Assembly (NCBI GenBank): GCA_019749875.1
Contig: JAIEPK010000479.1
Coordinates: forward strand, 7,184-71,183
Origin: Candidatus Binatia bacterium
Lineage (GTDB): Bacteria > Desulfobacterota > Binatia > UBA12015
Reading direction: 5' to 3'
DNA length: 64,000 bases
This document shows positions 2,101-49,097 of this stretch, one piece after another (positions within the stretch are counted from its first letter, which is position 1; each line of letters starts with the position of its first letter). Position numbers and translations under genes: made by a program. Below the pieces are notes generated by a model. That model was not told the origin of the DNA. It did no database searches and saw only the letters and a list, made by a program, of their open reading frames with translations.

Positions 2101-2919
2101 CTACTCGCTCCGCGGCGCTGCTGGTGACGAGCGGATCATCCAGTCCACGGACCGCGCGATGTCCGAGGGCACAAGACCGAACATCCGCCGGAACACCCGT
2201 GTCAGGTGGGCGGCGTCAGCAAACCCGGCGGCATGCGCCGCGCTCGTGACGCTCTCTCCCGCGGCGAGAGCAGCGGCGGCTCTCTGCAGGCGAAGCCACA
2301 GCACGTACGGCCGCAGGGGAATCCCGACCTGAGCGGAGAAGACGTGCGAAAGCCGGCTCGTGGAGACTTCCGCATGCCGTGCGAGCGTTGCGAGAGTCGG
2401 GTGCGCCGCATCCTCGTCCAGCAGAGACGGAAGCACTGCGAGCGACGAGCGAACGCCCGGATGCAGCGGCTCGGGGGGAATCCCGGGCGCACCGAGCGCG
2501 TCAAGCAACCCCTCCGTGGCGGCGTCCGCCTCGTCCCAGGACGACGGCAGTGAGGTTGGCGCCGCCACAACGAGCCGCTTTCCCGCATCGACACAACTCT
2601 CGAACGTGCTTCCGGATGCCTTCGCGCGACGCCCGAGCAGCGAGCGAACACGCGAGGTCTGCGGGTCGAGGTAGAGCAGGACGACGGCACGGGATGTCGA
2701 TTCGATCGCGTGAGGCTGATCTGGCGGGATGAGCGCCGCGACGCACCTGCCCGCCGAGCCGTCGCTGGCGCGCAGACCGATCGGTTCGCCGAGCGAAACG
2801 ACGACCTGGACGGCATGATGCGCGTGCATCGAGGTGGGACCGACCGGACCGGCGTAGAGCATCTGCCCGGTGCCAAGAAAGAGCCGACCGCGCCACGGCG
2901 GAACCGAGATGTTCTTCAT
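2101..2919 (-). CDS. AraC family transcriptional regulator
   Basis: C-terminal AraC HTH signature (TLATLARHAEVSTSRLSHVFSAQVG...HLTRVFRRMFG). ATG at 2917-2919. Confidence 0.75.
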   Translation of the reverse strand: MKNISVPPWRGRLFLGTGQMLYAGPVGPTSMHAHHAVQVVVSLGEPIGLRASDGSAGRCVAALIPPDQPHAIESTSRAVVLLYLDPQTSRVRSLLGRRAKASGSTFESCVDAGKRLVVAAPTSLPSSWDEADAATEGLLDALGAPGIPPEPLHPGVRSSLAVLPSLLDEDAAHPTLATLARHAEVSTSRLSHVFSAQVGIPLRPYVLWLRLQRAAAALAAGESVTSAAHAAGFADAAHLTRVFRRMFGLVPSDIARSVDWMIRSSPAAPRSE

Positions 2920-5282
2920 GAAGACCGGTTATCGAGGTGGTGGTTCGGACCTGCCCGGCCCGGCGTATTCTCGTACGTGCCTACATCCGCCACGCGCACG
3001 AGGTGCTCGTCCCCCGTGCGGCATGCGTCGCGACAATCGCACCCGGGGTGCGTGCATCGAAACCGGAACCTCACGCAGCGAGCCTGACTGGGAAGCGGAC
3101 CGAGCTTCACCGAGTGCCGTCGCGAGCCGGCCATCACGCCCCCGACCAGAGCGACCACGTCCGTCGAGATCGGTCCATCGTCCACGCTCCACGACAGTTG
3201 TCCGGGGCAGTTCGTGACGACGGCGAGCTGATCCCCAGGCTGCATCGTCGTCACCAGATTCGTGAACGTCCAGACGGTGACGTGTGGAACCAGGTGACGA
3301 TCGAGATCGAGTGGCGGCGCCTCGCCGACGCCGCGGTAGACATTCTTCAGGTGCGTCCGGAACAAGTCGTCGAACTCCTCGTCGCTGCCCGAGTCCTGAT
3401 CGTCCCCGAACCACCAAAACCAATCACTGCCCTCTGCCGCATAAAGTGCTTCGAAGGCCCAGCTGCATGCGTCCGCATCACAACCCTTTGAGGCGAGAAG
3501 CTCCCGCGCCTTCCGCAACAGGTCCCAGGCACAGTTCTCTTCGGGCTCGCCGATCCACGTTCCCAGATCGACTCCGGATGCAGATCCCGCCTCGTCGATC
3601 CAGGAGCCGGTGAACAGTTCATGGACACGGCGCAATCGATCGGGACGATGTGGCAGTAACCCACGCGCCGGCTCCCCCCGCAGATATTCGGCGAACGTGA
3701 CGGTCTGCAGCTGCTCGTCCGCGGCGAGTGCCTCGTAGAGGGCGTGGAGAAACAGGCGGCCGTCATCGCGATAGGCACCCCAGGCATTCTCGCCATCGAG
3801 GACGACCGTCACGACCCGGTCGGGATCGTCGTCGAGACACTGAATTGTACGGCTCCTCAGCTGAGCCACGAAATCGGCCGCCGCGGAATGCGGATCATCC
3901 CAGCCCTGGTAGCGGAACCCGATGGCATCCGAGAGCTCGTGGTCACGAAAGTACACGACGACCGAGGCTTGCCCCTCCTCTGCCCGGTACGGCCGACACA
4001 GCACGTCCGGATCGCGCACGTCATAACCCCACCGCCCGGAGCGTGCGAGGACCCCGGCGTCGCTCGCGATCCAGCCGATGTCGTGGCGTGCGAACGTCGG
4101 CACGACGAACTGGCTGACCGCACCCTCTGCGGGCCACATGCCCGTCGGACGACGCCCGAACCGGCGTTCGTAGAACTCGACCGCGCGGCGAACCTGAGCT
4201 TCCGCATCCTCCGGATACGAGAACCGTGTCGGGAGGCGAGTCGCTGGACGATCGATCGTCGCGCGATCCGTGTCGACGAGCAGCGGCAGGATGGGGTGAT
4301 AGAAGGGCGTCGTCGAAATCTCGATCTGCCCCCCGTCCTGCAGGGCGCGATGGATCGGAATCACCGCACGCATCACCTCGTATTGCGCGGCCACGATCTC
4401 CTTCACGTCGGCGCTGGTGAAGCCGCACCCGCGCTCGACGAAGCGATGAACCGCGATCCGCACCCCACCCTCCAGCTCGATCTCGCCGTCGCGGAACTCC
4501 TTGCCGAACCACGCGAGATTGAACCACGCCTGGAGGTCGCAGATGTCCTGCTCCGTGAACGGCCGACGCGCCCTTCGCTGCAGAAACAGCTCCTTGTAGC
4601 GCTCGTGCAGAAAGATCTGGTTGTGCCAGTCGGCGTCGAAGAAGCTCGACAGGATCTGCTCGCGTTCGGCCATCATCAAGTCGACGGGTGACCGGAGGGT
4701 GAGCTCGAGTGCTTCGTCCGTCGCTCCGCGCTCGACATAGTCCTCGATCTGCCAGAGCAGCGACGGCGACAAATTGATCGTCAAGTGGATTTCCGGGTGC
4801 TGCGCGACGATGGCCGCCATCGAGTAGTAGTCACGGATCGCGTGCAGGCGTACCCACGGCTGCCGGTAGCTGCCGCGGGGGTCGGAACGTTGCGTGTCTC
4901 TGTAGAGCGGCTGGTGCTGATGCCACAGGATGGCGACGCGGAGCGGCTCGATGCGAAAGGCGAATGCTCCGCTGTCGACCCGACCAGCCGCGGACGAGCC
5001 GCCGACCGCATACTCGACTCGGTCGCCCACCGAGAAGGGACCAAGCGCCGCTTGCCAATAGCTGTTCACACCGTCGTTGTGTTGCCACGTCGCTTCCACG
5101 CGGCCGCTGCTCGACGGGCCGTCCCGGTGGAGCGCTCGCCAGGACACCGAAACGTGCTGGTCCGGTTCGATCGGCCACGTCCCGATGGACAGCACGGCGA
5201 CCTGTCCACCACTCGCGCGCTGCAGCAAGCGCGGTGTGTCGGGATGCAGATGCCAGAGGTTCACGGTTTCGTCCTCGCGCAC
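2916..5282 (-). CDS. Glycoside hydrolase family 57 alpha-glucan enzyme with N-terminal extra domain (amylopullulanase/branching-enzyme-like)
   Basis: GH57 signatures LWHQHQPLYRD and DGENAWGAY; 788 aa. Probable GTG start at 5282. Confidence 0.75.
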   Translation of the reverse strand: MREDETVNLWHLHPDTPRLLQRASGGQVAVLSIGTWPIEPDQHVSVSWRALHRDGPSSSGRVEATWQHNDGVNSYWQAALGPFSVGDRVEYAVGGSSAAGRVDSGAFAFRIEPLRVAILWHQHQPLYRDTQRSDPRGSYRQPWVRLHAIRDYYSMAAIVAQHPEIHLTINLSPSLLWQIEDYVERGATDEALELTLRSPVDLMMAEREQILSSFFDADWHNQIFLHERYKELFLQRRARRPFTEQDICDLQAWFNLAWFGKEFRDGEIELEGGVRIAVHRFVERGCGFTSADVKEIVAAQYEVMRAVIPIHRALQDGGQIEISTTPFYHPILPLLVDTDRATIDRPATRLPTRFSYPEDAEAQVRRAVEFYERRFGRRPTGMWPAEGAVSQFVVPTFARHDIGWIASDAGVLARSGRWGYDVRDPDVLCRPYRAEEGQASVVVYFRDHELSDAIGFRYQGWDDPHSAAADFVAQLRSRTIQCLDDDPDRVVTVVLDGENAWGAYRDDGRLFLHALYEALAADEQLQTVTFAEYLRGEPARGLLPHRPDRLRRVHELFTGSWIDEAGSASGVDLGTWIGEPEENCAWDLLRKARELLASKGCDADACSWAFEALYAAEGSDWFWWFGDDQDSGSDEEFDDLFRTHLKNVYRGVGEAPPLDLDRHLVPHVTVWTFTNLVTTMQPGDQLAVVTNCPGQLSWSVDDGPISTDVVALVGGVMAGSRRHSVKLGPLPSQARCVRFRFRCTHPGCDCRDACRTGDEHLVRVADVGTYENTPGRAGPNHHLDNRSS

Positions 5283-5322: not shown

Positions 5323-6747
5323 TCAGCCGGGCGCCACGTCGAGCGTACCCATCATGCCCTGATCCTCGTGCTCGGCGATGTGACAGTGATAAACCGTTCG
5401 GCCCGCGAAGTCGCGCAGCGGTACCGCGATCTGAACCGTCTCGCTCCTCCGTACGTTCACGACGTCCTTCCACACGACGGCGCTCTCAGCCACACCGTTC
5501 CTCGACAATACCTGGAACGGATACGTGTGGAGGTGAAACGGATGGTCCATTCCGCCTCGGTTTTCGATCTCCCAGATCTCGAGATTGCCCAGGCGCGACG
5601 CGAGGTCGACCCGCGTGGGGTCGAACTCCTTCCCGTTGATCGAGAAGCGGGCGCCCATCATCGCCTCGCCGAGGACGAGGCCGCGCGTGACGTCGGCCGG
5701 CCGCCCACGAAAATCCTCCACGGTCGCGAGCGCGGTCGGGAGAAGCCTCGGCGCGCGCTCCGTACGGCGAACGAGCGTCATCAGCTGCACGGCCTCGCGG
5801 CCCACGCCTGTCCCTCCCATACCACCCATCATCATCGCGGCACCTCGGTCGTAGGGAAGATCGAGCAGCGCAAAGGTTCCCTGCCGCTCGAGCAACACGA
5901 GCACCTCCGCTCGTTCTCCCGGCGCCAGAAGAATCTCTTCGACGACGACCGGCGTCGCGAGCGCGTGACCGTCGGTAGCGAGGAGGTGGAACGCGTGCTC
6001 CTGCAGAGCGAGGCGATAGTAGCGCGCGTTGCTCGCGTTCAGGATGTGCAGGCGAAGCGCACCGCGAGTTGCAACGAGCACGGGATCGAGAGTCCCGTTC
6101 ACCAGGCGAAGGCTGCCCTCCTTGCCGCGTCGCCAATCCGGGGGAAGGTGCGGTGCCGGACGATCACCGTCCAACTCCAGGTCCTTCAGGACGAGGATGT
6201 GCTCCTCTGCGCCGGACAACGCGAACTCGGCAGTCGCGGGCTCGACCAGGATCGGGCCAGCGAGTCCCGCGAAGAGCTGCCGTGCGACCCGGCCGTGGAC
6301 GTGTGGATGGTACCAGTGCAGGCCCCGCGAGCCGCGAGGGACGTCGAACTCGTATGTCGCCGCCTCGCCTGGGGGCACCGCCAGGAACGGGTTGTCCACG
6401 GCCGGCGGGATGTGGAGGCCATGGAGGTGAAGGTTCGTCTCCTCCGGCAGCTGGTTGGTCAAGCGCAAACGAACACGATCGCCCTCTCGGACTCTGAGCA
6501 GCGGGCCTGGGAACGAGCCACCGTATGTCCACAGCTCCGCCCATGCATCCGCGACCCGAACCGTCGTGGCCGCCGCGGTGAGCTCGGCTTGGACCAATCC
6601 TGGCTCCAGGCGACGGCCCCTTAGCCGGCGCGGTGGTGGGAGCCCGAGTTGCGCCTGCTGCGCAATAGCGCGTCGTGAGACCAGCAGTCCCGCGGCGCCG
6701 GTTCCGAGAACTCGGAGCATCTGCCGCCGTCCGAGATTAGGAGACAT
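5323..6747 (-). CDS. Multicopper oxidase (CueO/CopA-like) with Tat signal
   Basis: Twin-arginine N-terminus SRRAIAQQ. Copper-binding His motifs HLHGLH, HWYHPHVHG, HPFHLH, HCHIAEHEDQGMM. ATG at 6745-6747 with GGAGGAAG RBS upstream. Confidence 0.85.
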   Translation of the reverse strand: MSPNLGRRQMLRVLGTGAAGLLVSRRAIAQQAQLGLPPPRRLRGRRLEPGLVQAELTAAATTVRVADAWAELWTYGGSFPGPLLRVREGDRVRLRLTNQLPEETNLHLHGLHIPPAVDNPFLAVPPGEAATYEFDVPRGSRGLHWYHPHVHGRVARQLFAGLAGPILVEPATAEFALSGAEEHILVLKDLELDGDRPAPHLPPDWRRGKEGSLRLVNGTLDPVLVATRGALRLHILNASNARYYRLALQEHAFHLLATDGHALATPVVVEEILLAPGERAEVLVLLERQGTFALLDLPYDRGAAMMMGGMGGTGVGREAVQLMTLVRRTERAPRLLPTALATVEDFRGRPADVTRGLVLGEAMMGARFSINGKEFDPTRVDLASRLGNLEIWEIENRGGMDHPFHLHTYPFQVLSRNGVAESAVVWKDVVNVRRSETVQIAVPLRDFAGRTVYHCHIAEHEDQGMMGTLDVAPG

Positions 6748-8896: not shown

Positions 8897-9087
8897 GATT
8901 TGAACTCCTTGACAACGCGAACCGGCCACCGCCTCGCGGCGGAGCCAGGCTGGGTCCCTCGAGGCATTGGCGCCGTGGCGCCGCGCGATCGCAAACCGAC
9001 TCCGCCGGGGGGTTGAACCAGCACGGCAGGGCCAGTGATGCTCGCAGCAACGCAGCAAGACGCCGCCCTTGGACGGGCGTCAAGGAA

Positions 9088-9531
9088 TCAGATCAGAAGA
9101 CGAGACAAACGCAGGTAGCGGGGGCGATGCTGCGAGGACTCGGCGAGAGTCCATCGCGTACGCACACCGAACGGCGGGTTCGGCGCGTCCAGCGTCGCGA
9201 CTGCTTCGGACACGATCGTGGGGGCAGTGAGCGCCGGCGCTGACGGGATGACCGGACCCGTCGACCGCAGCTCGCAGCAGGTGCTATGGGAATCCCGCGC
9301 GTGGTGACTCACGCCACGGAATGCGACGCTACCCTGCTCCTGATGAACGGCGGCCCAGGAGTCACTTGCATGCTGGCGACCGTAGTGAGCCATCGTGCTC
9401 GAAGAAGCCACGGGGATCGGACACGACGAATCGGACGCGGCGTCGGCACACCGCAGTGCCAGATGAGGGAGGATGGCGATGAGCAACAGCCCTCGCCAAA
9501 CCCGCCCATGCCATGTGGGTCGCATCAACAT
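9088..9531 (-). CDS. Secreted hypothetical protein with His-rich HxxxxCC motif (paralog of 48636..49097)
   Basis: Signal-peptide-like N-terminus. Shares HS(E)H(R)TCC(D/E)L and a C-terminal PRYLR(L/F)..LLI with the 48636-49097 protein. Flanking DNA is also homologous. Confidence 0.45.
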   Translation of the reverse strand: MLMRPTWHGRVWRGLLLIAILPHLALRCADAASDSSCPIPVASSSTMAHYGRQHASDSWAAVHQEQGSVAFRGVSHHARDSHSTCCELRSTGPVIPSAPALTAPTIVSEAVATLDAPNPPFGVRTRWTLAESSQHRPRYLRLSRLLI

Positions 9532-15316: not shown

Positions 15317-16780
15317 CTAGACCTCGATTCCGTCGCGTCGCAGGTCCGCCGCGCCGGCGACACCGGCAACGGTTCCCTTCGGATGCTCGTACCAGCCGGG
15401 ATCCTCGTCGTAGGTGTCGAGCCGATCCCGCACCTTGAGAACGTTGACGAGGCCACCCATGGAGATGAATGCGAAGGGGCCCCGCCCCCCCATCATCGGG
15501 ATGCTGTTCGGCGGAACCGCCATGTGCATCGAATCCCCCATGCCGCTCGTTCCCATGGTCATGTACTGCGGCAGCAGCGGTGTGATCTTGCGGTCGAGGC
15601 CATCGGCGTCGACCCCGAGCATGTTCGGGAAGTCGTGCCCCATCTGATTCATGACGTGATGGGTCATGTGACAATGCAGGGCCCAGTCACCGGGGGCATC
15701 GGCGATGAACTCGATCTCGCGCGTCTGCCCCACTGCTACGAGCACGGTCGTCTCGGGCCATTGCGCCGACAACGGAATCTGCTCCCCGTCGGTCGCGGTC
15801 ACGCGGAAGTGGACGCCGTGCAGGTGCATCGGGTGATGGTCCATCGCACTCAGGTTCCCGAAGCGGATTCGTACCTTGTCGTTGGTCTTCACGATCAGCG
15901 GCCACGTTGCGGGAAAGACCTTGCCGTTCATGGTGAGCACGTTGAAGCCCTGGTCCTTGATGGGGTTCGGCCGCGAGGTACCGACGCGGACGAAGAACTC
16001 ACCGGTCAGGATCGAGAAATCGCGGTCGACGTGCTGCTCCGGGGCGGGATGCCGCGGATGGACGACCAGCATCCCGGTCAGCCCCATCGCCATCTGCGTC
16101 ATCTCGTCGTGATGCGAGTGGAACATGAACGTCCCGTGCTGGCGGAACGTCCACTCGTAGAGAAACGTCTCACCGGGAGCGATCAGCGGCTGATTGAGCC
16201 CGCCCACCCCGTCCATTCCGTTCGGGAGGTAGACGCCGTGCCAGTGCACGCTGGTCTCCGCCGGGAGACGGTTCGTCACGTAGATGCGGACGCGCTCGCC
16301 CTCGACCGCCTCGATCGTGAGGCCGGCGACCTGACCGTTGAACGCCCAGCACGTGGTCTTCAGCCCGGGTGCGAACTCGTGCTCGATCTCGCCGAGCACG
16401 AGATGGAAGACCTTCGCGCCGTCGACGATCTTGAATGGCAGTGTGGCGCCGTTCGGCACCACGACGGGTTGGTAGTCCTTGCCCGGCAAACCCGGCGGCA
16501 GCGGCGCGACGTCCAGAGGGCCGCCGCTGTAGCTCTTCTCCCACCAATCGAGGTTGGTCTGTTTGATCCCCCCACCGGCAGGCGCGGGCGGCGGGCTCGC
16601 CGCGTCGGCCGGCGCGGGCGGCGTACTCCCCGCGGCGCCGGGCGCGGACGGCGTACTTTCCGGGTCGGCGGGCGCCGCGGGCTCGGCCGCACCGGCCCGC
16701 GCCGCCATCACACCGACGAGCGAGCCTCCGACCGCCGCGGCGCCCGAGAGCAACACCGTTCGTCGCGTAGCTTTCTTCAT
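15317..16780 (-). CDS. Multicopper oxidase with Tat signal, Pro/Ala-rich linker and Met-rich segment
   Basis: RRTVLLSGAAAVG Tat signal. Copper-binding motifs HWHG, HSHHDEMTQMAMG, HPMHLHGVHF, HCHMTHHVMNQM. Met-rich MTMGTSGMGDSMHM segment. Confidence 0.85.
   Translation of the reverse strand: MKKATRRTVLLSGAAAVGGSLVGVMAARAGAAEPAAPADPESTPSAPGAAGSTPPAPADAASPPPAPAGGGIKQTNLDWWEKSYSGGPLDVAPLPPGLPGKDYQPVVVPNGATLPFKIVDGAKVFHLVLGEIEHEFAPGLKTTCWAFNGQVAGLTIEAVEGERVRIYVTNRLPAETSVHWHGVYLPNGMDGVGGLNQPLIAPGETFLYEWTFRQHGTFMFHSHHDEMTQMAMGLTGMLVVHPRHPAPEQHVDRDFSILTGEFFVRVGTSRPNPIKDQGFNVLTMNGKVFPATWPLIVKTNDKVRIRFGNLSAMDHHPMHLHGVHFRVTATDGEQIPLSAQWPETTVLVAVGQTREIEFIADAPGDWALHCHMTHHVMNQMGHDFPNMLGVDADGLDRKITPLLPQYMTMGTSGMGDSMHMAVPPNSIPMMGGRGPFAFISMGGLVNVLKVRDRLDTYDEDPGWYEHPKGTVAGVAGAADLRRDGIEV
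16565..16690 (-). repeat. Imperfect ~30-bp tandem repeats (3-4 units) inside the multicopper oxidase gene encoding a Pro/Ala-rich linker
   Basis: The units ggcgcgggcggcgggctcgccgcgtcggcc, ggcgcgggcggcgtactccccgcggcgccg and ggcgcggacggcgtactttccgggtcggcg encode PAPAD(A/S)xSxP repeats. Confidence 0.5.
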
Positions 16781-16783
16781 GAC

Positions 16784-18238
16784 TCAACGACCTCCACCTT
16801 GGATCGTGGGGAATGGGAACCGGCGCGCAGCCTCGAGCGGAGCCGTCGGCTGCACGAGCGCATCGGACGGAGGCACCCGTCCGGCGAGGATCATCGACAT
16901 GTCGGCACGCGCGAGCCAGTACTCGCGCAGGCTGTCGACGTAGCGCGCCGCCGACTCGATCTGCTGCTCCTTGGTCCGCAGCACGTCGATCGGGCTGATC
17001 TGCATCGCGTTGTATTGGAGCATCGCCTGCTGGACCACCTGCGCTCGGACCGGAAGCTGGACGTCGCGGTAGTACAGGGAGCGCTCCCCATATCCCTGGA
17101 CGCGGTCGCGCGCTGCTCTGGCCAACGCTCGAATTCGCACCGCCAGGGCGTATCGCGCATCCAAAGCGCGCTGCAGCTCTGCTTGCGCGCGCGCGGCGCG
17201 AGCCTGCCCCTGATCGAAGATCGGAATCGGGATCAGAAGAGACGGACCCGGCTCCCACTCGGGCGCGTCGCGATCTCCGCGCGCACCCACGAGGATTTCC
17301 GGAAAGAGGCCACTCGTGCGATCGAGGCCGAGCTGCTCGCCGAGAGCGACGATGCGGCTCGCGTCCGCCTTGAGATCGAGGCTGGATTCGATGGCACGAG
17401 CTTCGACGCGGTCCAGGTCCATCGGCTGCTCCGGAGGATCGGACATTCGCGAAGCCTTCAGCTTCCAGCCCGCCTCCGTTCCCCACAGACCGAGGATCGC
17501 GTTCAGCTGCTCGCGGCTCGTCCGCACGTCGACTTCCGCGAGTCGAACGTCGAGCTTCGATTCCTCTGCGAGCGCCTGCTCGCTGGAGAGGTCCAGCTGC
17601 GTGATGTTTCCTGCCTCGCGAAGGCGACGGGCGAAGTCGAACGCGGCCATGGTCGATGCGGCGATCTGCCGACGCATCTCGAGCATCTGCTCGTCGGCCT
17701 GGTGGCGGTAGAATGCCGTCTCGGCGCGCCATGCGAGGTCGAGGACCGCGCTCGCGACGCGCAGCTGCGTTTCTTCCAGAGCCGCAGCGGTGACCCGCAT
17801 GCGAAGCGGCGTGTAGAGAAAATCGATCACGTCCATGGCCACGCCGAGTGCGACGTCCACGCCGCCGCCTCCCACCGGCAACCCGACACCGGCGTCGAGG
17901 ACCGGGTTGTGCAGCAGGCTCGACTGCACGAGGTCTGCCTGGGCCACACCGAGATCCGCGTAGACGGCACGGAGATCGCGGCTGTTCATCAGCGAGATCT
18001 TGACCGCCCCCTCGGCATCGAGGCCGCCGTCGAGCAATGAGCGCACGGCATCCACCGTTGCCGGGTCGTCGCCGGCGCCGGGAGTCCATGAAACCTCCTG
18101 CGTCGTGCGCTCCTTCACGATCGACGCAACGGTGGGAAACCCGCCTTGTGGATCGACGGCAACGGCCGTGCATCCCCCGAGCGCCAAGGCGAGCAGAGCC
18201 AGGAGCCCGGCTAGAGACTCAGGTCGGCGGCGCATCAC
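16784..18238 (-). CDS. Outer membrane efflux lipoprotein, TolC/OprM/CusC family
   Basis: Lipobox LALGGC after the signal, then two repeated TolC-type coiled-coil halves. Confidence 0.8.
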   Translation of the reverse strand: MMRRRPESLAGLLALLALALGGCTAVAVDPQGGFPTVASIVKERTTQEVSWTPGAGDDPATVDAVRSLLDGGLDAEGAVKISLMNSRDLRAVYADLGVAQADLVQSSLLHNPVLDAGVGLPVGGGGVDVALGVAMDVIDFLYTPLRMRVTAAALEETQLRVASAVLDLAWRAETAFYRHQADEQMLEMRRQIAASTMAAFDFARRLREAGNITQLDLSSEQALAEESKLDVRLAEVDVRTSREQLNAILGLWGTEAGWKLKASRMSDPPEQPMDLDRVEARAIESSLDLKADASRIVALGEQLGLDRTSGLFPEILVGARGDRDAPEWEPGPSLLIPIPIFDQGQARAARAQAELQRALDARYALAVRIRALARAARDRVQGYGERSLYYRDVQLPVRAQVVQQAMLQYNAMQISPIDVLRTKEQQIESAARYVDSLREYWLARADMSMILAGRVPPSDALVQPTAPLEAARRFPFPTIQGGGR

Positions 18239-18552
18239 TGACCTCCATGCATGTGGTGCTCGTGACCCCCATGGCCTGACATCGCGTCGGCGGCGGAAGG
18301 GGTCGCGGCTTGAGTCGGCTGCGCTGACCCACGCTTGAGAATGTTTGACGATTCGAGCGATGGCGCGGCGACAGCCTCAGGGTTCGCCGGATTGGTCAGC
18401 GCAATCGGAGGCGGTTGATAAGCCGCGCATCCCGTTCCCAGGACTGAAACAGCCATCGCCATCAGAGCGAAGCTGGATCGCACACCATTCGTCGTCGACC
18501 ATCGGCCGATTCGTCGATGCGCGCGGACATTCCGCGCTGCGTTCGGGGCCAT
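18235..18552 (-). CDS. Small putative lipoprotein with C-terminal His/Met metal-binding motif (start uncertain)
   Basis: C-terminus ADAMSGHGGHEHHMHGGQ. Possible signal MAMAVSVLGTGC. The stop overlaps the downstream outer-membrane-factor ATG (ATGA). Which in-frame start is used is unclear. Confidence 0.4.
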   Translation of the reverse strand: MAPNAARNVRAHRRIGRWSTTNGVRSSFALMAMAVSVLGTGCAAYQPPPIALTNPANPEAVAAPSLESSNILKRGSAQPTQAATPSAADAMSGHGGHEHHMHGGQ

Positions 18553-18862
18553 CGTCAGCGAAATCCGCCACCATGGCATCTTGTCGCCCTCCACCGATTC
18601 AAAGATGAACATCCGCCAGGCGGAACAGCCTGACCCAATTTCAACAACGAGCTCCGCGCATGCTAGAGTGGACGACGACCCCGAGGGTCGATCGTCTCGC
18701 CCGGGCACCACGTGTACGAACGCGTGGGCGCGTCGACTGGAGGACGCACTGGCGAGCTCCGCGTTACAGGCGCAAGGCGCACCTCCGGGGACGGAAGTCT
18801 GCTTGCGCTCGACGCTCGCGCGGTCGTGGCGCGCGGTCACCTAGCCCAATGGGCGGGACCGC

Positions 18863-19312
18863 TCAGACGAGGATCGTGCGGAATGTGAGATGCGAGCGCA
18901 GGCCAGGAAACCGGCTACGCTGCCGACCTTCGTCACGTGCGCGGCCCGGAAGGGGATCGCCGGGCCCGCCGAACACTGTCAGGCCCGACGCCTTCACACG
19001 CAGCGGAAACGCGGGCCCAGAGGTCATCGTCGACGCAACGGTGGCCTTCAGAGAAGGGAGCGCGACGATCGCTGCCATAGGACCGCAGCAAGCAGGCGAC
19101 TGCTCGTTCTGCGGCTGGCGATCAGCTGCCGAAGAGCCGCCATGCTTCGGACATTCCGGCGCAGCGACCGTCCGGGTCCGATCGGGACCATGGTCGGCGA
19201 TCTGGCAAAGATTCCGAGAGTGTTGTGCCGCCGCGACGACGAGCGCCAAGGCCAGAACGCTCGCGGTCGGCATGAGAACGCGCCTGAGCGGTCCTGTCGC
19301 AAACATTTTCAT
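18863..19312 (-). CDS. Hypothetical secreted Cys-containing protein
   Basis: [29 protein letters not shown] signal-like start, ATG at 19310-19312. Divergent from the 19491 gene. Weak support. Confidence 0.3.
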
Positions 19313-25968: not shown

Positions 25969-28383
<2,415 letters not shown>

Positions 28384-31220: not shown

Positions 31221-33089
31221 TCAGGCGTCCACGCTCACATCGGCCTCGGACTTGGCCTGGCACGCGAGGATCCAACCACCGGTCTTCTCGGACGAGCTCA
31301 GGCCATCGTCCACCGCCATCGAGACGTGTCCCTCCAGCAGGCGGACCTTGCACGCCCCGCAGAAGCCCTGACGGCAGGAATAGTCGATGGCAACTTCGAT
31401 CTCGTCAGCGACCTCGAGGATCGTACGCTCGGGCGGAAGCGGCGCCTTCTTCTCGGACCGAGCGAAGGTGCACGTTGCGGCGCTGGGCACACCCGAAGGC
31501 GCAGGAACGAGCGGGGCCTCCTTGACCTCGGGGCTCAAGAAGAGCTCCATCTTGACGGCGTCGGAAGGGACCCCGAGCTCTGCGAGCGCGGCTTTCATCG
31601 CATCCATCATGGGAGGAGGGCCGCACACGTGAACGCGTCGTGCCGCGAGCTCCGGTATAGTGGCCTGGAGGAGCTCGCGCGTGATTCGCCCGCGCGCTCC
31701 CGTCCAACCTTGTGAAGGCTCGGCAGTCAGAGAAATCGTCACATGCAGGTTCGGATGACGCTTTGCGAGATAATCCAGCTCCTCGCGAAAGATCACTTCG
31801 TCGAGCTGCGAAGTGCCGTAGACGAGATAGATGTCGCCGGCCCAGCTCTGGTCCGTCAGAAACCGGATCGAGCTCATGAGTGGCGTGATCCCCACGCCAC
31901 CGGCGATCATCACGACGCTCGACGCCTCACGGCCGCGGAAGGTGAAGCGGCCGAATGGGCCGGCCACGTCGATCGTGTCCCCGACTTGCATTCGCTCGTG
32001 CAGCACAGCCGAGACGGCCCCGCCGGTCACATGCCGCACCGTGATCTCACACCAGCCCTGACAGCACGGCGAGGATGCGATCGAGTACGAGCGCTTGACC
32101 TGTCGGCCGTCGACCGCAACACGGACCGCAAGGAACTGTCCCGGCTCGAACGTGAACGGCAAGTTCTCACCCAGGAGAGGTGCCAGCCGGAACGTCTTCG
32201 TCGTCGGCGTTTCCTGGAAGATGCGCGCGATCCTGAGCTGTCCGGACCACGCGCCGGTCGTCGACGGGACCTGCGTGACGACCGGTTCATGCGCCTGCGC
32301 TGCGACCGCCCGGCCCGTTGTCGCCGCGGTCTCCGGTGTCACGACCGGGCCGCGACGACCGACTGCCGGGGCCAGGCGATCGGCAAGCTCGCGAGCTCGG
32401 CGAATCCGCGCCATCTGGACGGCGCCCAGAATTGCCGCGCATCCCCCCAGCACGAGCATCGCGAAGTAGTGAAAGCCGGATGCCCTCGTCCGCTGCTCCC
32501 CCTCGTACGGGGTCACCGGCAAGTGCATCTCGCGCTTGAACCAGCGCAGTGCGACGTTCCGCGGCGACTGGCCCTCGACCAGTGCGCGCTCGGCAGCCAG
32601 ACCGCTGTCGAATTCGGCAAGCCCCTGGCCGATTCCTTCGGTGGCCTGCTGCATGGCCGCGTAGTCGTGCCGCTCTGCCGCAGACGCGAGGGCGGCGACC
32701 GCGCTCGAGACTCGATCCAGGCCGCTGCTCATGCGTCCGCGCGCGCGCGCTGCGACCTCTTGCCTCTGCTCGGGTGGCAGATCGGGAAGCTCCATCAGGG
32801 CGGGATAGAGCTCCTTCTGCGGCGGGCGACCGTGCGACTCCATCATCCGCCCCATGTCGCCCATCATGTCCTTCGCGCCGGGATCGGGAGCCGGCCCAGC
32901 CCCGCCCGCGGCATGGTGCTGTGCATGGGCATCGCTGGTCGTCGCCTGTGCGGAGCTCGGGACCGGAAGCACGACGGTGACGCACAACGCACAAGTCAGC
33001 GCTGCGGCGGCTGCATGGATGACGCGATTCTCGATCGATCGGCGAGGTCGGGGCGCCGCGTCCGGGTCAAACATAGGCGTTTGCCGCAT
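31221..33089 (-). CDS. Membrane-anchored FAD/NAD(P)-binding oxidoreductase with C-terminal 2Fe-2S ferredoxin domain
   Basis: FAD motif RSYSIAS, NAD-binding GGVGITP, 2Fe-2S ferredoxin cysteines CRQGFCGACK. N-terminal signal/TM and a Met/His-rich segment MMGDMGRMMESHG. Confidence 0.75.
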   Translation of the reverse strand: MRQTPMFDPDAAPRPRRSIENRVIHAAAAALTCALCVTVVLPVPSSAQATTSDAHAQHHAAGGAGPAPDPGAKDMMGDMGRMMESHGRPPQKELYPALMELPDLPPEQRQEVAARARGRMSSGLDRVSSAVAALASAAERHDYAAMQQATEGIGQGLAEFDSGLAAERALVEGQSPRNVALRWFKREMHLPVTPYEGEQRTRASGFHYFAMLVLGGCAAILGAVQMARIRRARELADRLAPAVGRRGPVVTPETAATTGRAVAAQAHEPVVTQVPSTTGAWSGQLRIARIFQETPTTKTFRLAPLLGENLPFTFEPGQFLAVRVAVDGRQVKRSYSIASSPCCQGWCEITVRHVTGGAVSAVLHERMQVGDTIDVAGPFGRFTFRGREASSVVMIAGGVGITPLMSSIRFLTDQSWAGDIYLVYGTSQLDEVIFREELDYLAKRHPNLHVTISLTAEPSQGWTGARGRITRELLQATIPELAARRVHVCGPPPMMDAMKAALAELGVPSDAVKMELFLSPEVKEAPLVPAPSGVPSAATCTFARSEKKAPLPPERTILEVADEIEVAIDYSCRQGFCGACKVRLLEGHVSMAVDDGLSSSEKTGGWILACQAKSEADVSVDA

Positions 33090-34959
33090 ACTGCTGGACC
33101 ATCCGATGCGTATTGAAGAACGACGCGTTGAAGGCGATCGTCCTTCGCATCACGTCGATCCACCCGTCGCGGTCATCATAGTACAGCGGCACGATGACGT
33201 CGGTGAGCTTCTCGTAGAGTCGGGATGCGTCCGCTCGGTTGGCCTCGTCCGCGGGCACCGACCCGTCATCCAGATCCTCCCCGATTGACCAGCCCGTCAC
33301 CCCTTCCATGTGGCCCTCGATCCACCAGCCGTCGAGGACGCTCAGGCTCGGAATGCCATTGTGCGCCGCCTTCATCCCCGAGGTACCGGACGCCTCGAGC
33401 GGGCGAAGTGGCGTATTGAGCCAGAGGTCCACTCCCGAGGTGAGCAAGCGAGCAAGCTCCAGGTCGTAGTTTTCGAGGTAGACCACCGTTACCCTTCCAG
33501 CGAGTGCCTTCGCAGCTTCGAAGATGCGCCTGATCATCTCCTTGCCGGGCTCGTCCTTCGGGTGTGCCTTGCCAGCGAAGACGAATTGCAGTCGCCCGAC
33601 CTGGCTCGCAATCTCCACGAGCCTCGCCGGATCGAAGAACACGAGATCGGCGCGTTTGTACGCGGTCGCCCGACGAGCGAAGCCGATCGTCAGACAATCA
33701 GGCGCCAGATTCTGCGACGTCGTTCGTCGGATCTCGTGGAGCAGCGCCGTCTTAGCCTCTGCGTGCGCCGACCAGATCTCGTCGCGCGGGATCCTCACCG
33801 CATGGCGCAGCGAAAACGGGTCTCGAGCCCAGCCTGGGACGTAGCGGTCGTACCTCCGCCTGAACGCATCGCACGTCCAAGCGAAGGAGTGGACCCCGTT
33901 CGTAACCGCGTCGATCGCGTAGCCCGGAAAGAGATGCTGGGACACCTCGCCGTGCCGCTTGGCGACGCCGTTCACGAAGTGAGCCAGGTTCAGCGCCAGG
34001 AACGTCATGTTGAGCTGTTCTGATCCCGCGAGCATTCGCAGCTCGTCCAATGGCACGAAATCGCCGAGCACGTCATGGACCAGCTCGTACGAAAAGCGAT
34101 CGTGCCCCGCAGGCACCGGGGTATGCGTCGTGAAAACGCATTGCCGCTTCACCTGCTCGATCGCCTCGGCCAGGGGCGTTTGCTCCTGTCGTTCACGAAG
34201 CAGCTCGAGAGCCAACAGGCTCGCATGCCCTTCGTTCAGGTGAAATCGCTCGAGCCCTCGGTGGCCCAGCGCTCGCAACATGCGGATGCCGCCGACGCCG
34301 AGGACGACCTCCTGCGCCAGACGGTAACGCTCGTCGCCTCCGTAGAGACAGGCCGTGATCGTGCGATCCGATGACGCGTTCTCCTCGACATCGGTATCGA
34401 GCAAGATCAACGGCACCGTGTAACCGCTTGCGCCGCGCACGTCGTATCGCCATGCGCGAACGGCGACCGATCGACGCTCGATCGTGACGTGCACGACCGG
34501 TGCTACAAGCGCCGCAATCTCATCTGCCTTCCATTCGACGGGGTGCTCCCGCTGCTTTCCCGGCTGCTCGATGGTCTGGTCGAAATAGCCCCGCCCGTAC
34601 AGGATGCTGACGCCCACGACCGGAATCTTCAGGTCCGCGAATGATCGGAGCGTGTCTCCGGCGAGCACCCCGAGCCCGCCACTGTAGATCGGCAGACGCG
34701 GGTCTACCGCGACCTCCATCGAGAAGTATGCGATCCTGCGCACCGCCGGGTCCAGCGCCGCGTCTGGCGGACTCGGCGTATGCGCGAAAACGTCCGGCCC
34801 CAGCCGGAACACGTCGGAGCAGTAGGAAGAGCAGAAGAAGAAGTTCCGCCCTTCAAAGACCGACGAGCGAGCGTCCCGCCGGTCGACCGCCATTCCACAG
34901 ACTGGGTCCCGAGCAAGCCCGGAGTTCTCGGCTGCCGTCACCGGTTCTGAATCTTCCAT
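33067..34959 (-). CDS. Alpha-glucan phosphorylase (GT35, small maltodextrin-phosphorylase-type) with N-terminal YHS metal-binding domain
   Basis: N-terminal DPVCGMAVD...FFFCSSYC YHS pattern, then IAYFSMEVAVDPRLPIYSGGLGVLAGD, the alpha-glucan phosphorylase core. Confidence 0.8.
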   Translation of the reverse strand: MEDSEPVTAAENSGLARDPVCGMAVDRRDARSSVFEGRNFFFCSSYCSDVFRLGPDVFAHTPSPPDAALDPAVRRIAYFSMEVAVDPRLPIYSGGLGVLAGDTLRSFADLKIPVVGVSILYGRGYFDQTIEQPGKQREHPVEWKADEIAALVAPVVHVTIERRSVAVRAWRYDVRGASGYTVPLILLDTDVEENASSDRTITACLYGGDERYRLAQEVVLGVGGIRMLRALGHRGLERFHLNEGHASLLALELLRERQEQTPLAEAIEQVKRQCVFTTHTPVPAGHDRFSYELVHDVLGDFVPLDELRMLAGSEQLNMTFLALNLAHFVNGVAKRHGEVSQHLFPGYAIDAVTNGVHSFAWTCDAFRRRYDRYVPGWARDPFSLRHAVRIPRDEIWSAHAEAKTALLHEIRRTTSQNLAPDCLTIGFARRATAYKRADLVFFDPARLVEIASQVGRLQFVFAGKAHPKDEPGKEMIRRIFEAAKALAGRVTVVYLENYDLELARLLTSGVDLWLNTPLRPLEASGTSGMKAAHNGIPSLSVLDGWWIEGHMEGVTGWSIGEDLDDGSVPADEANRADASRLYEKLTDVIVPLYYDDRDGWIDVMRRTIAFNASFFNTHRMVQQYAANAYV

Positions 34960-38500: not shown

Positions 38501-38738
38501 TCACGCGTGGAGCCGAGATGAGCGCCGTGACGATCGGATATGTGACCTGATCCTCGATCAGAGGCGGGCTCCGGCCCTCCCACGTCGTGGTGACGATCAC
38601 CTGCACGTCGGACAAGTCGGGGATGGCGTCGATCGGAGTGTTCCGGAGTGCCCAGATGCCGCTTCCGACGATCCCCAGCATCAAGAGGAGGACGACGAAC
38701 GCGTTCCGCCCACTGAAGTCGATGAGCTTCTCGATCAT
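35592..38738 (-). CDS. cusA: Heavy-metal efflux RND transporter, CusA/CzcA family
   Basis: 1049 aa from MIEKLIDFSGRNAF, 12-TM RND architecture. The Cu(I)/Ag(I) HME clade is implied by context. ATG at 38736-38738. Confidence 0.9.
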   Translation of the reverse strand: MIEKLIDFSGRNAFVVLLLMLGIVGSGIWALRNTPIDAIPDLSDVQVIVTTTWEGRSPPLIEDQVTYPIVTALISAPRVKVVRGFSYFDVSFVYVIFEDGTDLYWARSRVLEYLNGLQGRLPSGVTPVLGPDATGVGWGFEYALVDRTGQYDLSRLRTLNDWYVQYWLRSISGVAEVAPVGGYVKQYQIEIDPKALLAYGIPIDAVTSAVRESNNDVGGRVVEWTGREYMVRGRGYIQSVADVEQIGLGAKPDGTPILVKDVGRVHLGPDMRRGVAELNGEGDVAGGIVVIRYGVDTYSVIENIKKAIKERIQPALPQGVEVVVTYDRSDLIERSIETLREKLVEEAIIVSLVCIVFLWHFRSALVAILTLPLSILLSFVAMRYIGLGSNIMSLGGIAIAIGAMIDAAIIMIENAHKHLEHDTGERPRRDVLIEAAQEVGRPLFFSLLIITVSFLPIFTLEAQEGRLFRPLAFTKTFAMGFAALMSVLVVPFLMVLFVRGKITPEERNPINRFLIWAYHPFVRFVLRHRAITIIAAIILMASTIPVFLKLGSEFMPPLYEGTLLYMPITLPGASVQTAQQILAVQDKLIKTVPEVESVFGKAGRSVSATDPAPLEMIETVINLKPESEWRSGMTPEKLEGELDRLVRVSGVANAWTMPIKARVDMLSTGIRTPVGIKIFGPKLDGINEIGAQIEGALNSVRGTRNVFAERVTGGYYVDFKIKRDQIARYDLKIKDVEMVIESAIGGANVTTTIEGRERFPVNVRYQREYRSDIDAIRRTLISTPRGIQIPIEQVAEISLSTGPTVIRTEQAQLLGYVYVDVADRDIGGYVDEAKRVVGEMVKVPEGYYLEWSGQYEYMLRAKDRLSVVIPVTLLLVIVLLYFNTRNPTKIVIVLLAVPFSLIGAFWLIYLLGYNLSVAVWVGIIALAGVDAETGVVMLLYLDHAYEKSVREGRMSSLEDLEASVEEGAVQRVRPKMMTVMAILLGLLPIMWGHGAGADVMKRIAAPMVGGVITSFILELLIYPVIFTIWKWHWEVKPTLEGGGSPRGA

Positions 38739-38748
38739 GCTCGTGCCT

Positions 38749-40095: not shown

Positions 40096-40109
40096 CAGCG
40101 CGCGACCAC

Positions 40110-46341: not shown

Positions 46342-46847
46342 CAGCTCCTCCGCTGCGCCAAGGGCACGACGAAGAGCTCGCCACCCTCGATCGTAGCCGG
46401 ATAGACGTCCAGCGGTCGCGGAGGAGGGCCTCCGATCACACGGCCGTCAATGTCGTACAACCCGTCGTGGCAGGGACAAAGAAAACGGTTCTCCTTCACC
46501 TGCCAATGATAGGCGCAGCCGAGATGTGTACAGCGCGGGTCGAAGACCAGAACATCGTCGGTGCTGCGCTTGACGACCCAGGCAGCGTGCCGACCTTCTT
46601 CGGTTACCCAGCCGTCACGCTGCCGCAGGACGAACTCGACCTTCTGAGGCTGGTTGGCTTGAAAGTCGCTCACGGCCCCGAGCCGTACGCGCAACGTCTC
46701 GCGCCGCCGGAGGAGCGGCCCGAGGAAATAGCCAACCAGCGGCGCCGCGAGGCCAAGACCAACCAGGGTGATGATCGACCAGAAGCAGCGCGCGAGCCAT
46801 TCTCGCCTGTCGACCGAGTCGCCCGCCCCCTGGATCACTTCGGACAT
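46341..46847 (-). CDS. Rieske 2Fe-2S protein
   Basis: CTHLGC and CPCHDG Rieske boxes with an N-terminal TM anchor. Confidence 0.85.
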   Translation of the reverse strand: MSEVIQGAGDSVDRREWLARCFWSIITLVGLGLAAPLVGYFLGPLLRRRETLRVRLGAVSDFQANQPQKVEFVLRQRDGWVTEEGRHAAWVVKRSTDDVLVFDPRCTHLGCAYHWQVKENRFLCPCHDGLYDIDGRVIGGPPPRPLDVYPATIEGGELFVVPLAQRRS

Positions 46848-47762: not shown

Positions 47763-47831
47763 GACACTCCCTTTCACCGCGCGATCGCGCAGTTATCCCT
47801 CGGTCGAAAAGACGCACGACCCTTCAACGCG

Positions 47832-48500
47832 TTACAGCTCTCGCCTATCGGGACAGGATGCCGACTGGGCTCTCCTGCAAGAACCCGCACTTTGGCACCT
47901 GCAAGGAGCACAGTTGTCGGCGGCGGATCCGCCGCACACGTCAACGAGACGGGACCGCAGACTGCCGCGCGCCCGATGCAGCCGCACACGAGCGTTCGTT
48001 GTCGAGATCCCCGCCTCCCGCGCTGCCTGGTCAATCGTCGACCCGTCGAGGTCTATCCGGCGAATGATCGCGGCGTAAGCGGGACTGAGCGTCAAGAATG
48101 CCCGACCAACACACCCGCATGACTCCGGGGTGGGGTCGGCTTCATGCCTCACCGCTTGAGCTTCATGCGCGAATCGTCCCAGTACCCGCTGATAGGCATC
48201 GCTGCGACGCCTGAAGTCGATCGAGGCGTTCTTCAGCACGCGGAGGAACCACCATGGAAACCGCTCCGGGGACCGCAGCTCGCCTGCCCGTACGAGTGCA
48301 CTCAGACATGCATTCTGCAGCACGTCCTCCGCTGCTTTTCGATCGCCCACCAGCCGCGTGGCCATCCCAAGCCAGCGGGCCTTGTCGTCGTAGACGGCAG
48401 TCAGTAGTGCTGCCGTCTCCTCCGAACGACGGATCGGGGCCGGTGCCGATGCCGGCCGACTTGACGTCGTCATCGTCTCTCGCCCCATCGCTCCGGACAA
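47832..48500 (-). CDS. ECF (sigma-70 family) sigma factor with C-terminal Cys-rich extension (CorE-like)
   Basis: Sigma region 2 (FPWWFLRVLKNASIDFRRR) and region 4 (IDLDGSTIDQAAREAGISTTNARVRLHRARGSLR). C-terminus DVCGGSAADNCAPCRCQSAGSCRRAQSASC has 8 Cys in 30 aa. The start may be one of several in-frame Met codons. Confidence 0.75.
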   Translation of the reverse strand: MSGAMGRETMTTSSRPASAPAPIRRSEETAALLTAVYDDKARWLGMATRLVGDRKAAEDVLQNACLSALVRAGELRSPERFPWWFLRVLKNASIDFRRRSDAYQRVLGRFAHEAQAVRHEADPTPESCGCVGRAFLTLSPAYAAIIRRIDLDGSTIDQAAREAGISTTNARVRLHRARGSLRSRLVDVCGGSAADNCAPCRCQSAGSCRRAQSASCPDRREL

Positions 48501-48635
48501 GTCCGGAAATATGCGCCTAGGGATCTCGCGGCTGCTGCTGCCCGTGTTGTTCGGGCAGGCGGCAATAGCCGCGGGCGAAGCGCTGCTCAGCCTCGCGACC
48601 GAGGAGCAGCGCGTTCCGCGCGACGGGTCAAGAGA

Positions 48636-49097
48636 TCAAATCAGAAGCGTTGCGAAACGGAGGTAACGCGGCGGGGCGTGGGCGGACGCAACCAGATCCG
48701 CGCGCCTGTCGAGATCGGCGACCCGATGCCACGACTCTCGGTCGTACACGGTCGCTACCACGATGCTCACAGGCGCAGTGGATGGGGGAGTCGAGTCGTG
48801 GGCAAATCTATCCTTGCCGGTGAGGTCGCAGCACGTGCGATGCTCCGAATGGGGCGTGGTTGCCGAGTCGTGCTGTTCTCCGTGATGCTGGTGACCAACG
48901 TGCACGTCTGCGCGCATAGCCTGGTGGGCGACGGACCGGGACGTACGCTGAGCTGCGTCCGTTATCGGACAGTTCGTGGCGGCATCCGCGAGACAACGCG
49001 TCGATGAGTACGGCAGGACGACAGACACGAACAGCGCGACGAGAACACGCAACCACTGCCTTGCTGGGCCCAGCAAGATTCGCCGCAAGAAAATCAT
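48636..49097 (-). CDS. Secreted hypothetical protein with HxxxxCC motif (paralog of 9088..9531)
   Basis: Signal MIFLRRILLGPARQWLRVLVALFVSVV. Motif HQHHGEQHDSATTPHSEHRTCCDL. C-terminal PRYLRFATLLI mirrors the paralog. Confidence 0.5.
   Translation of the reverse strand: MIFLRRILLGPARQWLRVLVALFVSVVLPYSSTRCLADAATNCPITDAAQRTSRSVAHQAMRADVHVGHQHHGEQHDSATTPHSEHRTCCDLTGKDRFAHDSTPPSTAPVSIVVATVYDRESWHRVADLDRRADLVASAHAPPRYLRFATLLI

Follow-up and report, generated by a model that had tools for sequence, protein, structure and literature searches.

Conserved cysteine-pair ORFs in a Candidatus Binatia copper island: candidate metal-sensing leader peptides with a predicted long-range RNA helix

We have analysed a 64,000-nucleotide stretch of DNA from a Candidatus Binatia bacterium (contig JAIEPK010000479.1; 'the window' refers to this whole stretch) that includes a copper island and, within it, two small ORFs coding for Cys/His-rich proteins, here called ORF A and ORF B. 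The two are probably cis-acting, co-translationally exported metal-sensing arrest peptides of the CutF/CruR kind. Five features lead to this leader-peptide reading: a conserved tail ends at the stop codon; an adjacent pair of Cys (CC) keeps a fixed distance from the stop; structure prediction gives no globular fold; the gene downstream differs in type, always on the same strand; and a predicted RNA helix joins the stop codon to the ribosome binding site (RBS) of the next gene. A reading of the same DNA made from its letters and ORF translations (the sequence-only reading) had pointed to small secreted proteins with a site reminiscent of Cu(I) binding; free periplasmic copper-binding proteins are made unlikely by these five features. 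What stands is that both are genuine, conserved and, by prediction, exported Cys/His-rich small ORFs tied to copper/metal genes.

The two ORFs lie on the minus strand where the sequence-only reading had placed them (Table 1). They are paralogs, as it had supposed: BLASTP aligns them across 141 residues with 32% identity (E 3e-11), and the family profile strongly matches both and no further ORF of the window. The motifs and C-termini quoted for them are correct, except that they had been attributed in the wrong order: HSTCCEL and the ending ...PRYLRLSRLLI belong to ORF A, HSEHRTCCDL and the ending ...PPRYLRFATLLI to ORF B. Their signal peptides are plausible. Each protein has three Lys or Arg residues (K/R) and zero acidic residues followed by a 15-residue hydrophobic stretch (mean Kyte-Doolittle 2.0-2.2), and AlphaFold, supplied with the family alignment, predicts an N-terminal helix (ORF B residues 11-33). 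This is the only confident part of the model (predicted template modelling score, pTM, 0.30), and a PDB sequence search for a related solved structure of the family returned noise only. ORF A was gene-called on 14 metagenome contigs. Its closest distinct relative (P0020, at locus L018) shares 52% amino acid (aa) identity over the aligned codons and has the same downstream genes. ORF B has relatives at 89%, 84% and 56% identity, with gene order maintained.

Further relatives were collected with an exhaustive HMMER search in which a five-sequence profile was compared with 1.84 billion representatives (E ≤ 1e-3). It returned 65 cluster representatives, 64 of them true relatives and one a false positive with kringle repeats. 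An additional alignment-based homolog search, in which the best 8000 candidates by shared words were scored, returned 14 proteins. Scans with the pattern TCCELTGK gave mostly chance hits: just two of the nine genome loci and eight of the 18 metagenome loci proved to be true members. Matches in genomes came only from metagenome-assembled genomes (MAGs) of Candidatus Binatia and Longimicrobiales, the remaining members being metagenomic. Once mis-called N-termini are set aside, the relatives are 120-160 aa long, and their alignment (66 sequences; some counts below are out of 65) reaches the final residue. A hydrophobic 15-residue window with a mean Kyte-Doolittle value of at least 1.6 is present in 58 of 65, and in 56 of 65 at least two K/R and almost no acidic residues precede it; export signals were judged from hydropathy, charge and the AlphaFold helix.

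The CC pair is invariant (66/66), so that the claim made for it survives the check which the sequence-only reading had itself proposed, namely whether homologs lose these residues. The His flank that had been described with it is not conserved: RTCC occurs in 21 and HTCC in 17 of 65. Two Cys further upstream are near-invariant, one in the motif LPYxSxRC that ends the hydrophobic segment and the other in GC, and the region between the signal and CC contains about 15% His. The proteins end in a block of 14 residues, H-(G/A/H/S)-P-P-x-Y-L-R-x-A-T-L-L-I-stop. Numbered backwards from the last residue, the counts out of 65 are H at -14 (55), P at -12 (62), P at -11 (64), Y or F at -9 (65), L or I at -8 (65), R at -7 (53), L at -3 (62), L at -2 (57) and I at -1 (55). 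Of the 66 members, 64 have their second Pro at exactly -11, and 40 carry HAPP or HGPP. From CC to the C-terminus there are 61-65 residues (median 63) in 65 of the 66 proteins, and 50-54 from CC to the second Pro, the residues in between being poorly conserved. Since the Leu codons of the tail differ synonymously among loci (CTC, CTG, CTT), selection acts on the peptide. The dN/dS ratio ranges from 0.2 to 0.65. The stop codon is UGA wherever it was read (14 of 14 tabulated loci and four more), which is mildly informative at this G+C content.

At all 14 loci analysed the next gene is on the same strand and begins 104-191 nucleotides (nt) after the family ORF. Its type varies. It specifies a CorE-like extracytoplasmic function (ECF) sigma factor at loci B, L007, L008, L022 and L039; an outer-membrane efflux protein (OEP) directly at L038 and L048; a 342-aa unknown protein, followed by OEP and a CusB-like gene, at L025; a nucleotidyltransferase followed by DUF2934, DUF2933 and ICMT genes at A and L018 (in the window a multicopper oxidase then follows); a family of unknown proteins (478 aa in L046) at L044, L046 and L047; and small exported proteins at L017 and L035/L045. 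The genes upstream of the family ORF show no conservation. A constant position in cis before varied genes is expected of a leader and not of a dedicated partner protein.

The sigma factor that follows ORF B is CorE-like in its sequence features. A CXC motif (SCGCV) lies between the Pfam region 2 (35-92) and region 4 (121-170) matches, and the protein ends in a Cys-rich extension of 40 residues with 7 Cys; the sigma factors of L007, L022 and L039 have the same pattern. A CXC motif and a Cys-rich C-terminal extension characterise the CorE-like sigma factors, which respond to metals and do without an anti-sigma factor (PMC8999054). After the sigma gene the same-strand string continues with a Met/His-rich protein, cytochrome c/Rieske/cytochrome b genes, two unknowns and a CusCBA-type efflux pump.

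The sequence-only reading had also reported homologous DNA downstream of the two ORFs. This is true of about 20 nt after the stop (TGAT-YY-CTTGAC-(G)CCCGTC), the remaining downstream DNA aligning without meaning. ORF A and its L018 relative share an identical block of 24 nt around the stop despite a dS of 0.6 between the ORFs, and the interior of their leaders differs by a 64-nt indel. The CTTGAC was considered as a sigma-70 -35 box and rejected, since neither leader has a promoter-like site on that strand. No intrinsic terminator was found on that strand in either leader, and no Rfam family matches the leaders.

These post-stop bases are predicted to pair with the initiation region of the next gene. 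At locus A, 12 contiguous pairs would cover the Shine-Dalgarno sequence AAGGAG (predicted -18 kcal/mol), and at locus B about 20 pairs would span the 24 nt before the conserved AUG (predicted -29 kcal/mol). Both helices were best or near-best against shuffled, non-cognate and positional controls in silico. When windows from 120 nt upstream of the stop through the leader were scanned for partners, the ORF B 5' arm was the best partner of the sigma initiation region among all those scanned, and at seven of the 14 loci, A and B among them, the initiation region finds its best partner in a segment that begins between -8 and +6 nt from the stop. In silico, then, the structure of the mRNA hides the downstream RBS at both A and B, as it does in CutF.

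The core arms (5' with 3') are UUCCUUGACG with CGUCAAGGAG at A and L018, UCUCUUG with CGAGAGA at B, UUUCUUG with CAAGAAA at L007, GCUGACCCUC with GAGGGUUAGC at L025, CAUAACCCC with GGGGUUAUG at L038 (AUG included) and CCUCCCG with CGGGAGG at L031. A comparison of B with L007 shows one change that is fully compensatory (C-G to U-A), two one-sided ones that preserve pairing and none that disrupts it. The helix closes the minimum-free-energy folds of all of the first nine leaders (9/9). Cognate arm pairs have a mean of -18.0 kcal/mol compared with -14.1 kcal/mol for arms swapped between unrelated loci (Mann-Whitney p 0.0013). The number of pairs expected between arm and initiation region from the partition function exceeds that of shuffled arms, with a Fisher p of about 1e-5 that overstates independence because some of the loci are related. 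An unrestricted duplex search of whole leaders compared with shuffles was not significant in many loci. In addition, an inverted repeat, UCCGGA-(3-7 nt)-UCCGGA, is kept in 8 of 9 aligned leaders and degraded in L022; its 3' arm enters the GGAG before the upstream AUG. The repeat could be a hairpin in the RNA or a palindrome to which a protein binds.

The sequence-only reading could assign the ORFs to no named family. Profile searches, by weak matches, place them as remote, sub-threshold relatives of DUF2946 (PF11162). ORF B matches this profile at 15 bits (E 0.042; gathering threshold 23.7 bits) over positions 2-117 of 117, the match ending at PP, and 18 of the 66 members match it weakly (best E 7e-4, none above threshold). 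ORF A has no Pfam match, and a comparison with NCBIfam found none for either ORF. DUF2946 includes CruR and CutF (PMC9426467; PMC9973294), two copper-responsive upstream ORFs (uORFs) that have been characterised experimentally; their peptides carry an export signal, a Cys motif and, at a fixed spacing, a proline arrest motif towards the C-terminus. Our family shares with it the predicted N-in/C-out export signal and the position ahead of a same-strand gene across a long spacer. DUF2946 keeps the distance between its Cys and arrest motifs constant to 1-2 residues (45 in CruR); ours, measured from CC to the second Pro of the putative arrest motif, is likewise tight, though at another value, 50-54 residues. 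The CXXC motif of DUF2946 (PMC9426467) never occurs at the position of CC, and the HxPP of the family (HRPR in ORF A) sits ten residues before the end, not about three as RAPP does. Since the DUF2946 profile ends at Pro143 of ORF B, the ten-residue tail is an addition relative to it.

In Rhodobacter capsulatus, CutF (cutFOG operon) combines a Sec signal with two upstream Cys, a CxxxC and a C-terminal PPP; a stem-loop hides the RBS of the multicopper oxidase gene, and CutF acts only in cis, the mature protein being undetectable. The family is like CutF in being a small same-strand ORF directly before a copper-defence gene, in its Sec signal, its Cys pair preceded by two further Cys and its proline motif close to the C-terminus, and in an mRNA structure, predicted here, that hides the next RBS and would be opened when a ribosome lingers at the end of the leader. 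The family differs in having CC instead of CxxxC, HxPP with a tail of invariant length (xYLRxATLLI) instead of PPP, and a spacer of 104-191 nt closed by a long-range helix instead of a short local stem-loop. Its targets also include an ECF sigma factor. Under the rules used for CutF-like proteins by Ozturk et al. (<150 aa, PP in the last 15 residues, a signal peptide and a same-strand downstream gene at <1000 nt), ORF A has a suitable length (147 aa) and no PP, ORF B has PP but is 153 aa long, and both satisfy the other two; most relatives satisfy all four.

CruR (Bp2923 of Bordetella pertussis) is the founding characterised DUF2946 uORF, with an export signal, CXXC and RAPP; it acts through Rho-dependent termination, and copper relieves the arrest. 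The family resembles it in its export signal, in the nearly constant distance that separates its Cys motif from a RAPP-type motif, in being the first gene of a metal operon with a long intergenic spacer and, as proposed here, in acting as a nascent peptide. CruR has CXXC and places RAPP three residues from the end at a spacing of 45, whereas the family has CC and HxPP ten residues from the end. The CruR family is mostly proteobacterial, unlike the genomes in which our relatives were found.

Three other systems bear comparison. The RAPP-like (RQH) arrest peptides (SecM, ApdA, ApdP and the secA/secDF uORFs) also have an N-terminal localisation signal and a C-terminal (R/Q/H)-(A/G/D)-(P/G/S)-(P/G) motif, a rule that HAPP of ORF B fits and HRPR of ORF A does not. 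Both HAPP and HGPP have been found in front of secA/secDF and served there as query motifs; members of this RAPP-like motif family have been shown by experiment to stall ribosomes, with the codon of the third residue in the P-site (PMC10987492). These peptides monitor the secretion machinery, not metals, and lack CC and the ten-residue tail. In stop-codon arrest of the TnaC type (NSP-stop, NAP-stop, DGMK-stop) the conserved block likewise ends at the stop, where the RNA element of our family starts; there is no sequence similarity, termination stalling in the family is hypothetical, and TnaC senses a cytoplasmic ligand inside the exit tunnel. Finally, CopL of Xanthomonas and Stenotrophomonas is also a Cys/His-rich small ORF before a copper oxidase gene; it is required in cis for copper-induced expression and is grouped with CutF-like proteins, but its motifs and C-terminus differ. 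The NCBIfam library, which neither ORF matched, includes a CopL model.

The main alternative is a stable small metal-binding protein, exported or anchored in the membrane, that acts in trans, for example as a periplasmic copper chaperone, buffer or sensor. An export signal, four conserved Cys, a His-rich region between the signal and CC, a location in copper/efflux loci and moderate purifying selection along the whole ORF are what such proteins would have. We nevertheless consider it unlikely. No fold is predicted past the signal helix, and conservation is strongest in the last 14 residues, which run right up to the stop. The spacing between CC and the C-terminus, fixed although the sequence between them is variable, suggests a ruler relative to the ribosome and not a domain. 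A protein acting in trans would also leave unexplained why the ORF is always directly upstream, on the same strand, of unrelated types of gene and why an RNA helix runs from its stop to the next RBS; in the case of the related CutF, no mature protein can be detected in vivo and there is no action in trans.

It is very unlikely that proteins of the ORF B type sit in the membrane as anti-sigma factors or co-sensors that partner the adjacent ECF sigma factor. A sigma gene does follow the ORF at B, L007, L008, L022 and L039, but this is just 5 of about 18 loci. The predicted cytoplasmic N-terminus (about 8-15 residues) is too short for an anti-sigma domain, there is no Pfam anti-sigma or zinc-finger match, and CorE-like sigma factors are regulated by their own extension without an anti-sigma factor. 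That the ORFs are untranslated and their similarity that of a repeated non-coding element can practically be dismissed: long spurious ORFs are indeed common in the window because of its 65% G+C and the post-stop bases are conserved as DNA, but some 64 diverged relatives retain frame, length, stop position and peptide motifs with synonymous variation, dN/dS is below 1 in every comparison and Rfam offers no match.

If, as we think probable, ORFs A and B are arrest peptides acting in cis, the switch may operate as follows. The nascent peptide would be exported co-translationally by means of its N-terminal signal, so placing its four Cys (the two upstream and CC) and His-rich stretch where they could sample periplasmic copper or another thiophilic metal. 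The last 14 residues would at that moment still be in the ribosomal exit tunnel, where they would act as a translation-arrest module. The time for which the ribosome dwells at the end of the ORF would then decide whether the RNA helix, which pairs the stop codon and the next 10-20 nt with the RBS of the next gene 130-190 nt away, stays closed. Opening it would permit downstream translation: for ORF B, of the CorE-like sigma factor that heads a long string of genes and, for ORF A, of the string running from the nucleotidyltransferase to the multicopper oxidase. The effect of metal might be a longer stall, as in CutF, or release from it, as in CruR. The arrest itself, the binding of metal, the site of arrest (HxPP or the UGA stop) and the polarity of the switch are all points that we infer.

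A stall at HxPP would fit the CC spacing when this is compared with that of CruR. A stall at the UGA stop would explain why the tail is invariant in length and sequence, why the conserved block ends at the stop and why the helix starts there. It would also explain the ORF A subfamily, which has lost the di-proline and kept the tail and the cleanest helix. We put forward, as a tentative and rather doubtful proposal, that HxPPxYLRxATLLI-UGA is a new arrest module that stalls at termination, the stall being set by periplasmic copper on CC while the nascent chain is half exported. At loci of the ORF B type it would gate translation of a CorE-like sigma factor that is itself a sensor of cytoplasmic metal, so that a single switch of two steps would integrate periplasmic and cytoplasmic metal status.

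A number of observations weigh against the leader-peptide reading. Translation, stalling, export and metal binding are all predicted from sequence. A ribosome stalled at HxPP, still 33 nt short of the stop, would not by itself open the helix. The di-proline is missing from ORF A (HRPR) and from its closest relative (PRAR), ORF A has no match to DUF2946, and the ORF B match is below threshold. The dN/dS values of 0.35-0.65 indicate moderate constraint. The helix at the initiation region is weak or absent in about half of the related loci (L039, L044, L046, L017, L031 and L028), and L035 and L047 have their 3' partner 25-45 nt before the start (in L044 this is a possible alternative). RNAalifold, applied to a MAFFT alignment of the nine leaders, recovered local hairpins only, including the UCCGGA repeat and one right after the stop with GC/CG covariation, and not the closing helix, whose register shifts by 2 nt between subgroups. 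Lastly, the native promoter context of ORF B is uncertain because insertion-sequence genes lie directly upstream of it.

These insertion-sequence genes (49461-51536, minus strand) consist of a 237-aa ORF with a partial match to the Mutator-family transposase profile (positions 223-337 of 379) and an IS481/IS3-type pair (helix-turn-helix and rve integrase). ORF B may have lost its original promoter region through replacement or disruption.

That the ORFs are set in copper/metal loci, as had been claimed, is borne out by the neighbouring genes. The island genes listed in Table 1 are all on the minus strand and within the window; DUF2933 and ICMT genes are also part of the island.

Table 1. Positions in the window of the two ORFs, their motifs and RNA arms, the genes that follow them and the main copper-island genes
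Feature	Position	Strand	Remarks
ORF A, leader-type, 147 aa	9088..9531	minus	N-terminal export signal; Cys at the family's two semi-conserved upstream positions; divergent member
ORF A adjacent Cys pair	9274..9279	minus	residues 85-86, in HSTCCEL; 61 residues from C-terminus
ORF A last 14 residues	9091..9132	minus	QHRPRYLRLSRLLI; tail kept, di-proline degenerate (HRPR)
ORF A predicted helix, 5' arm	9078..9089	minus	GAUUCCUUGACG; last two bases of UGA stop + 10 nt
ORF A predicted helix, 3' arm	8903..8914	minus	UGUCAAGGAGUU; contains nucleotidyltransferase Shine-Dalgarno AAGGAG (8905-8910)
Nucleotidyltransferase, 331 aa	7901..8896	minus	first gene after ORF A; heads string of DUF2934, DUF2933, ICMT/PEMT methyltransferase and multicopper oxidase (5323-6747)
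ORF B, leader-type, 153 aa	48636..49097	minus	export signal, Cys35, Cys43, His-rich stretch
ORF B adjacent Cys pair	48828..48833	minus	residues 89-90, in HRTCCDL (wider motif HSEHRTCCDL); 63 residues from C-terminus
ORF B last 14 residues	48639..48680	minus	HAPPRYLRFATLLI; RAPP-like HAPP + family's invariant-length 10-residue tail
ORF B predicted helix, 5' arm	48616..48638	minus	UGAUCUCUUGACCCGUCGCGCGG; UGA stop + 20 nt
ORF B predicted helix, 3' arm	48474..48497	minus	24 nt before sigma start codon; purine-rich GCGAGAGA + upstream in-frame AUG
Inverted repeat UCCGGA-CUUG-UCCGGA	48492..48507	minus	possible hairpin just 5' of sigma start; pairs of columns 140-154 kept in 6-9 of 9 sequences
ECF sigma factor, 213 aa from conserved AUG	47832..48473	minus	follows ORF B; CorE-like
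Multicopper oxidase	5323-6747	minus	copper island
Multicopper oxidase	15317-16780	minus	copper island
Outer-membrane efflux (OEP) gene	16784-18238	minus	copper island
P1B ATPase fused to YHS + HMBD domains	25969-28383	minus	copper island
CusA-like gene	35592-38825	minus	copper island
CusB-like gene	38749-40524	minus	copper island
Outer-membrane efflux (OEP) gene	40110-41561	minus	copper island

Several neighbouring genes deserve mention. Directly after the sigma gene, 47352-47777 (minus) codes for a 141-aa exported protein, rich in Met, His and Gly (for example HDMQGHMDHMHQ) and with no Pfam family, which is likely to be a periplasmic copper-binding protein. The same slot holds an unannotated ORF in L007 (164 aa) and L008 (134 aa), the match being by position only. 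Farther downstream of the sigma gene (44623-47200, minus) are genes for a cytochrome c, for a Rieske protein and for a cytochrome b that carries two fused cytochrome c domains; the position of the cytochrome c and Rieske genes is kept in L007, and that of cytochrome c in L008. The family of unknown proteins downstream of other members (L046 oriented 2810-4246, L047 604-1167 and L044 2049-2195) has Cys clusters (GCCCADR, CTCGHACP) and no Pfam match. The leader RNAs of these three loci share blocks with the sigma-linked leaders, and this family is a recurrent target. A 123-aa protein encoded upstream of ORF A was compared with a protein encoded downstream of a Binatia leader, and the similarity was not significant.

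Elsewhere in the island, 33067-34959 (minus) fuses a YHS metal-binding domain to a glycogen-phosphorylase-like protein, and YHS domains recur at loci L001 and L022. A putative lipoprotein of 114 aa (18235-18579, minus), to which Pfam gives no significant family, ends in a His/Met-rich tail, MSGHGGHEHHMHGGQ; the stop of its gene and the start of an OEP gene overlap. Upstream of this lipoprotein-like gene, the OEP gene and a multicopper oxidase gene lies an ORF of 149 aa (18863-19312, minus) with a signal, two Cys, ACCGP and the ending ...HLTFRTILV. It was considered as a third paralog and rejected: neither the profile nor hhalign supports it, the distance from CC to its end is 73 residues and a closing helix is absent. 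Possibly it is a leader-type ORF that is unrelated to the family or very remote from it.

Leader peptides that sense metal and inform the ribosome of copper in the periplasm became known only in 2022-2025, from two proteobacterial examples, and published surveys do not mention sigma factors among the downstream neighbours. We propose that the present family is a distinct, unannotated clade of such peptides with a new candidate arrest module, a long-range RNA lock and CorE-like targets, occurring outside the Proteobacteria. It is set apart from CutF and CruR because it falls below the Pfam threshold, has CC, HxPP with its tail and another spacing, and includes an ORF A without PP and an ORF B of more than 150 aa. 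Widespread variants of the CutF/CruR mechanism have already been anticipated by specialists, and the functional claims made here are drawn from sequence. If they are true, the principle would extend to other phyla (for example, the poorly studied Binatota and Gemmatimonadota) and to a different Cys motif and a longer arrest sequence with a strict ruler. It would also gain a new class of target, the metal-responsive ECF sigma factor, in which translational sensing would stand upstream of a transcriptional regulon. The family further provides an annotation rule for about 64 clusters of 'hypothetical proteins' in metal-resistance islands and a compact candidate motif for research on arrest peptides.

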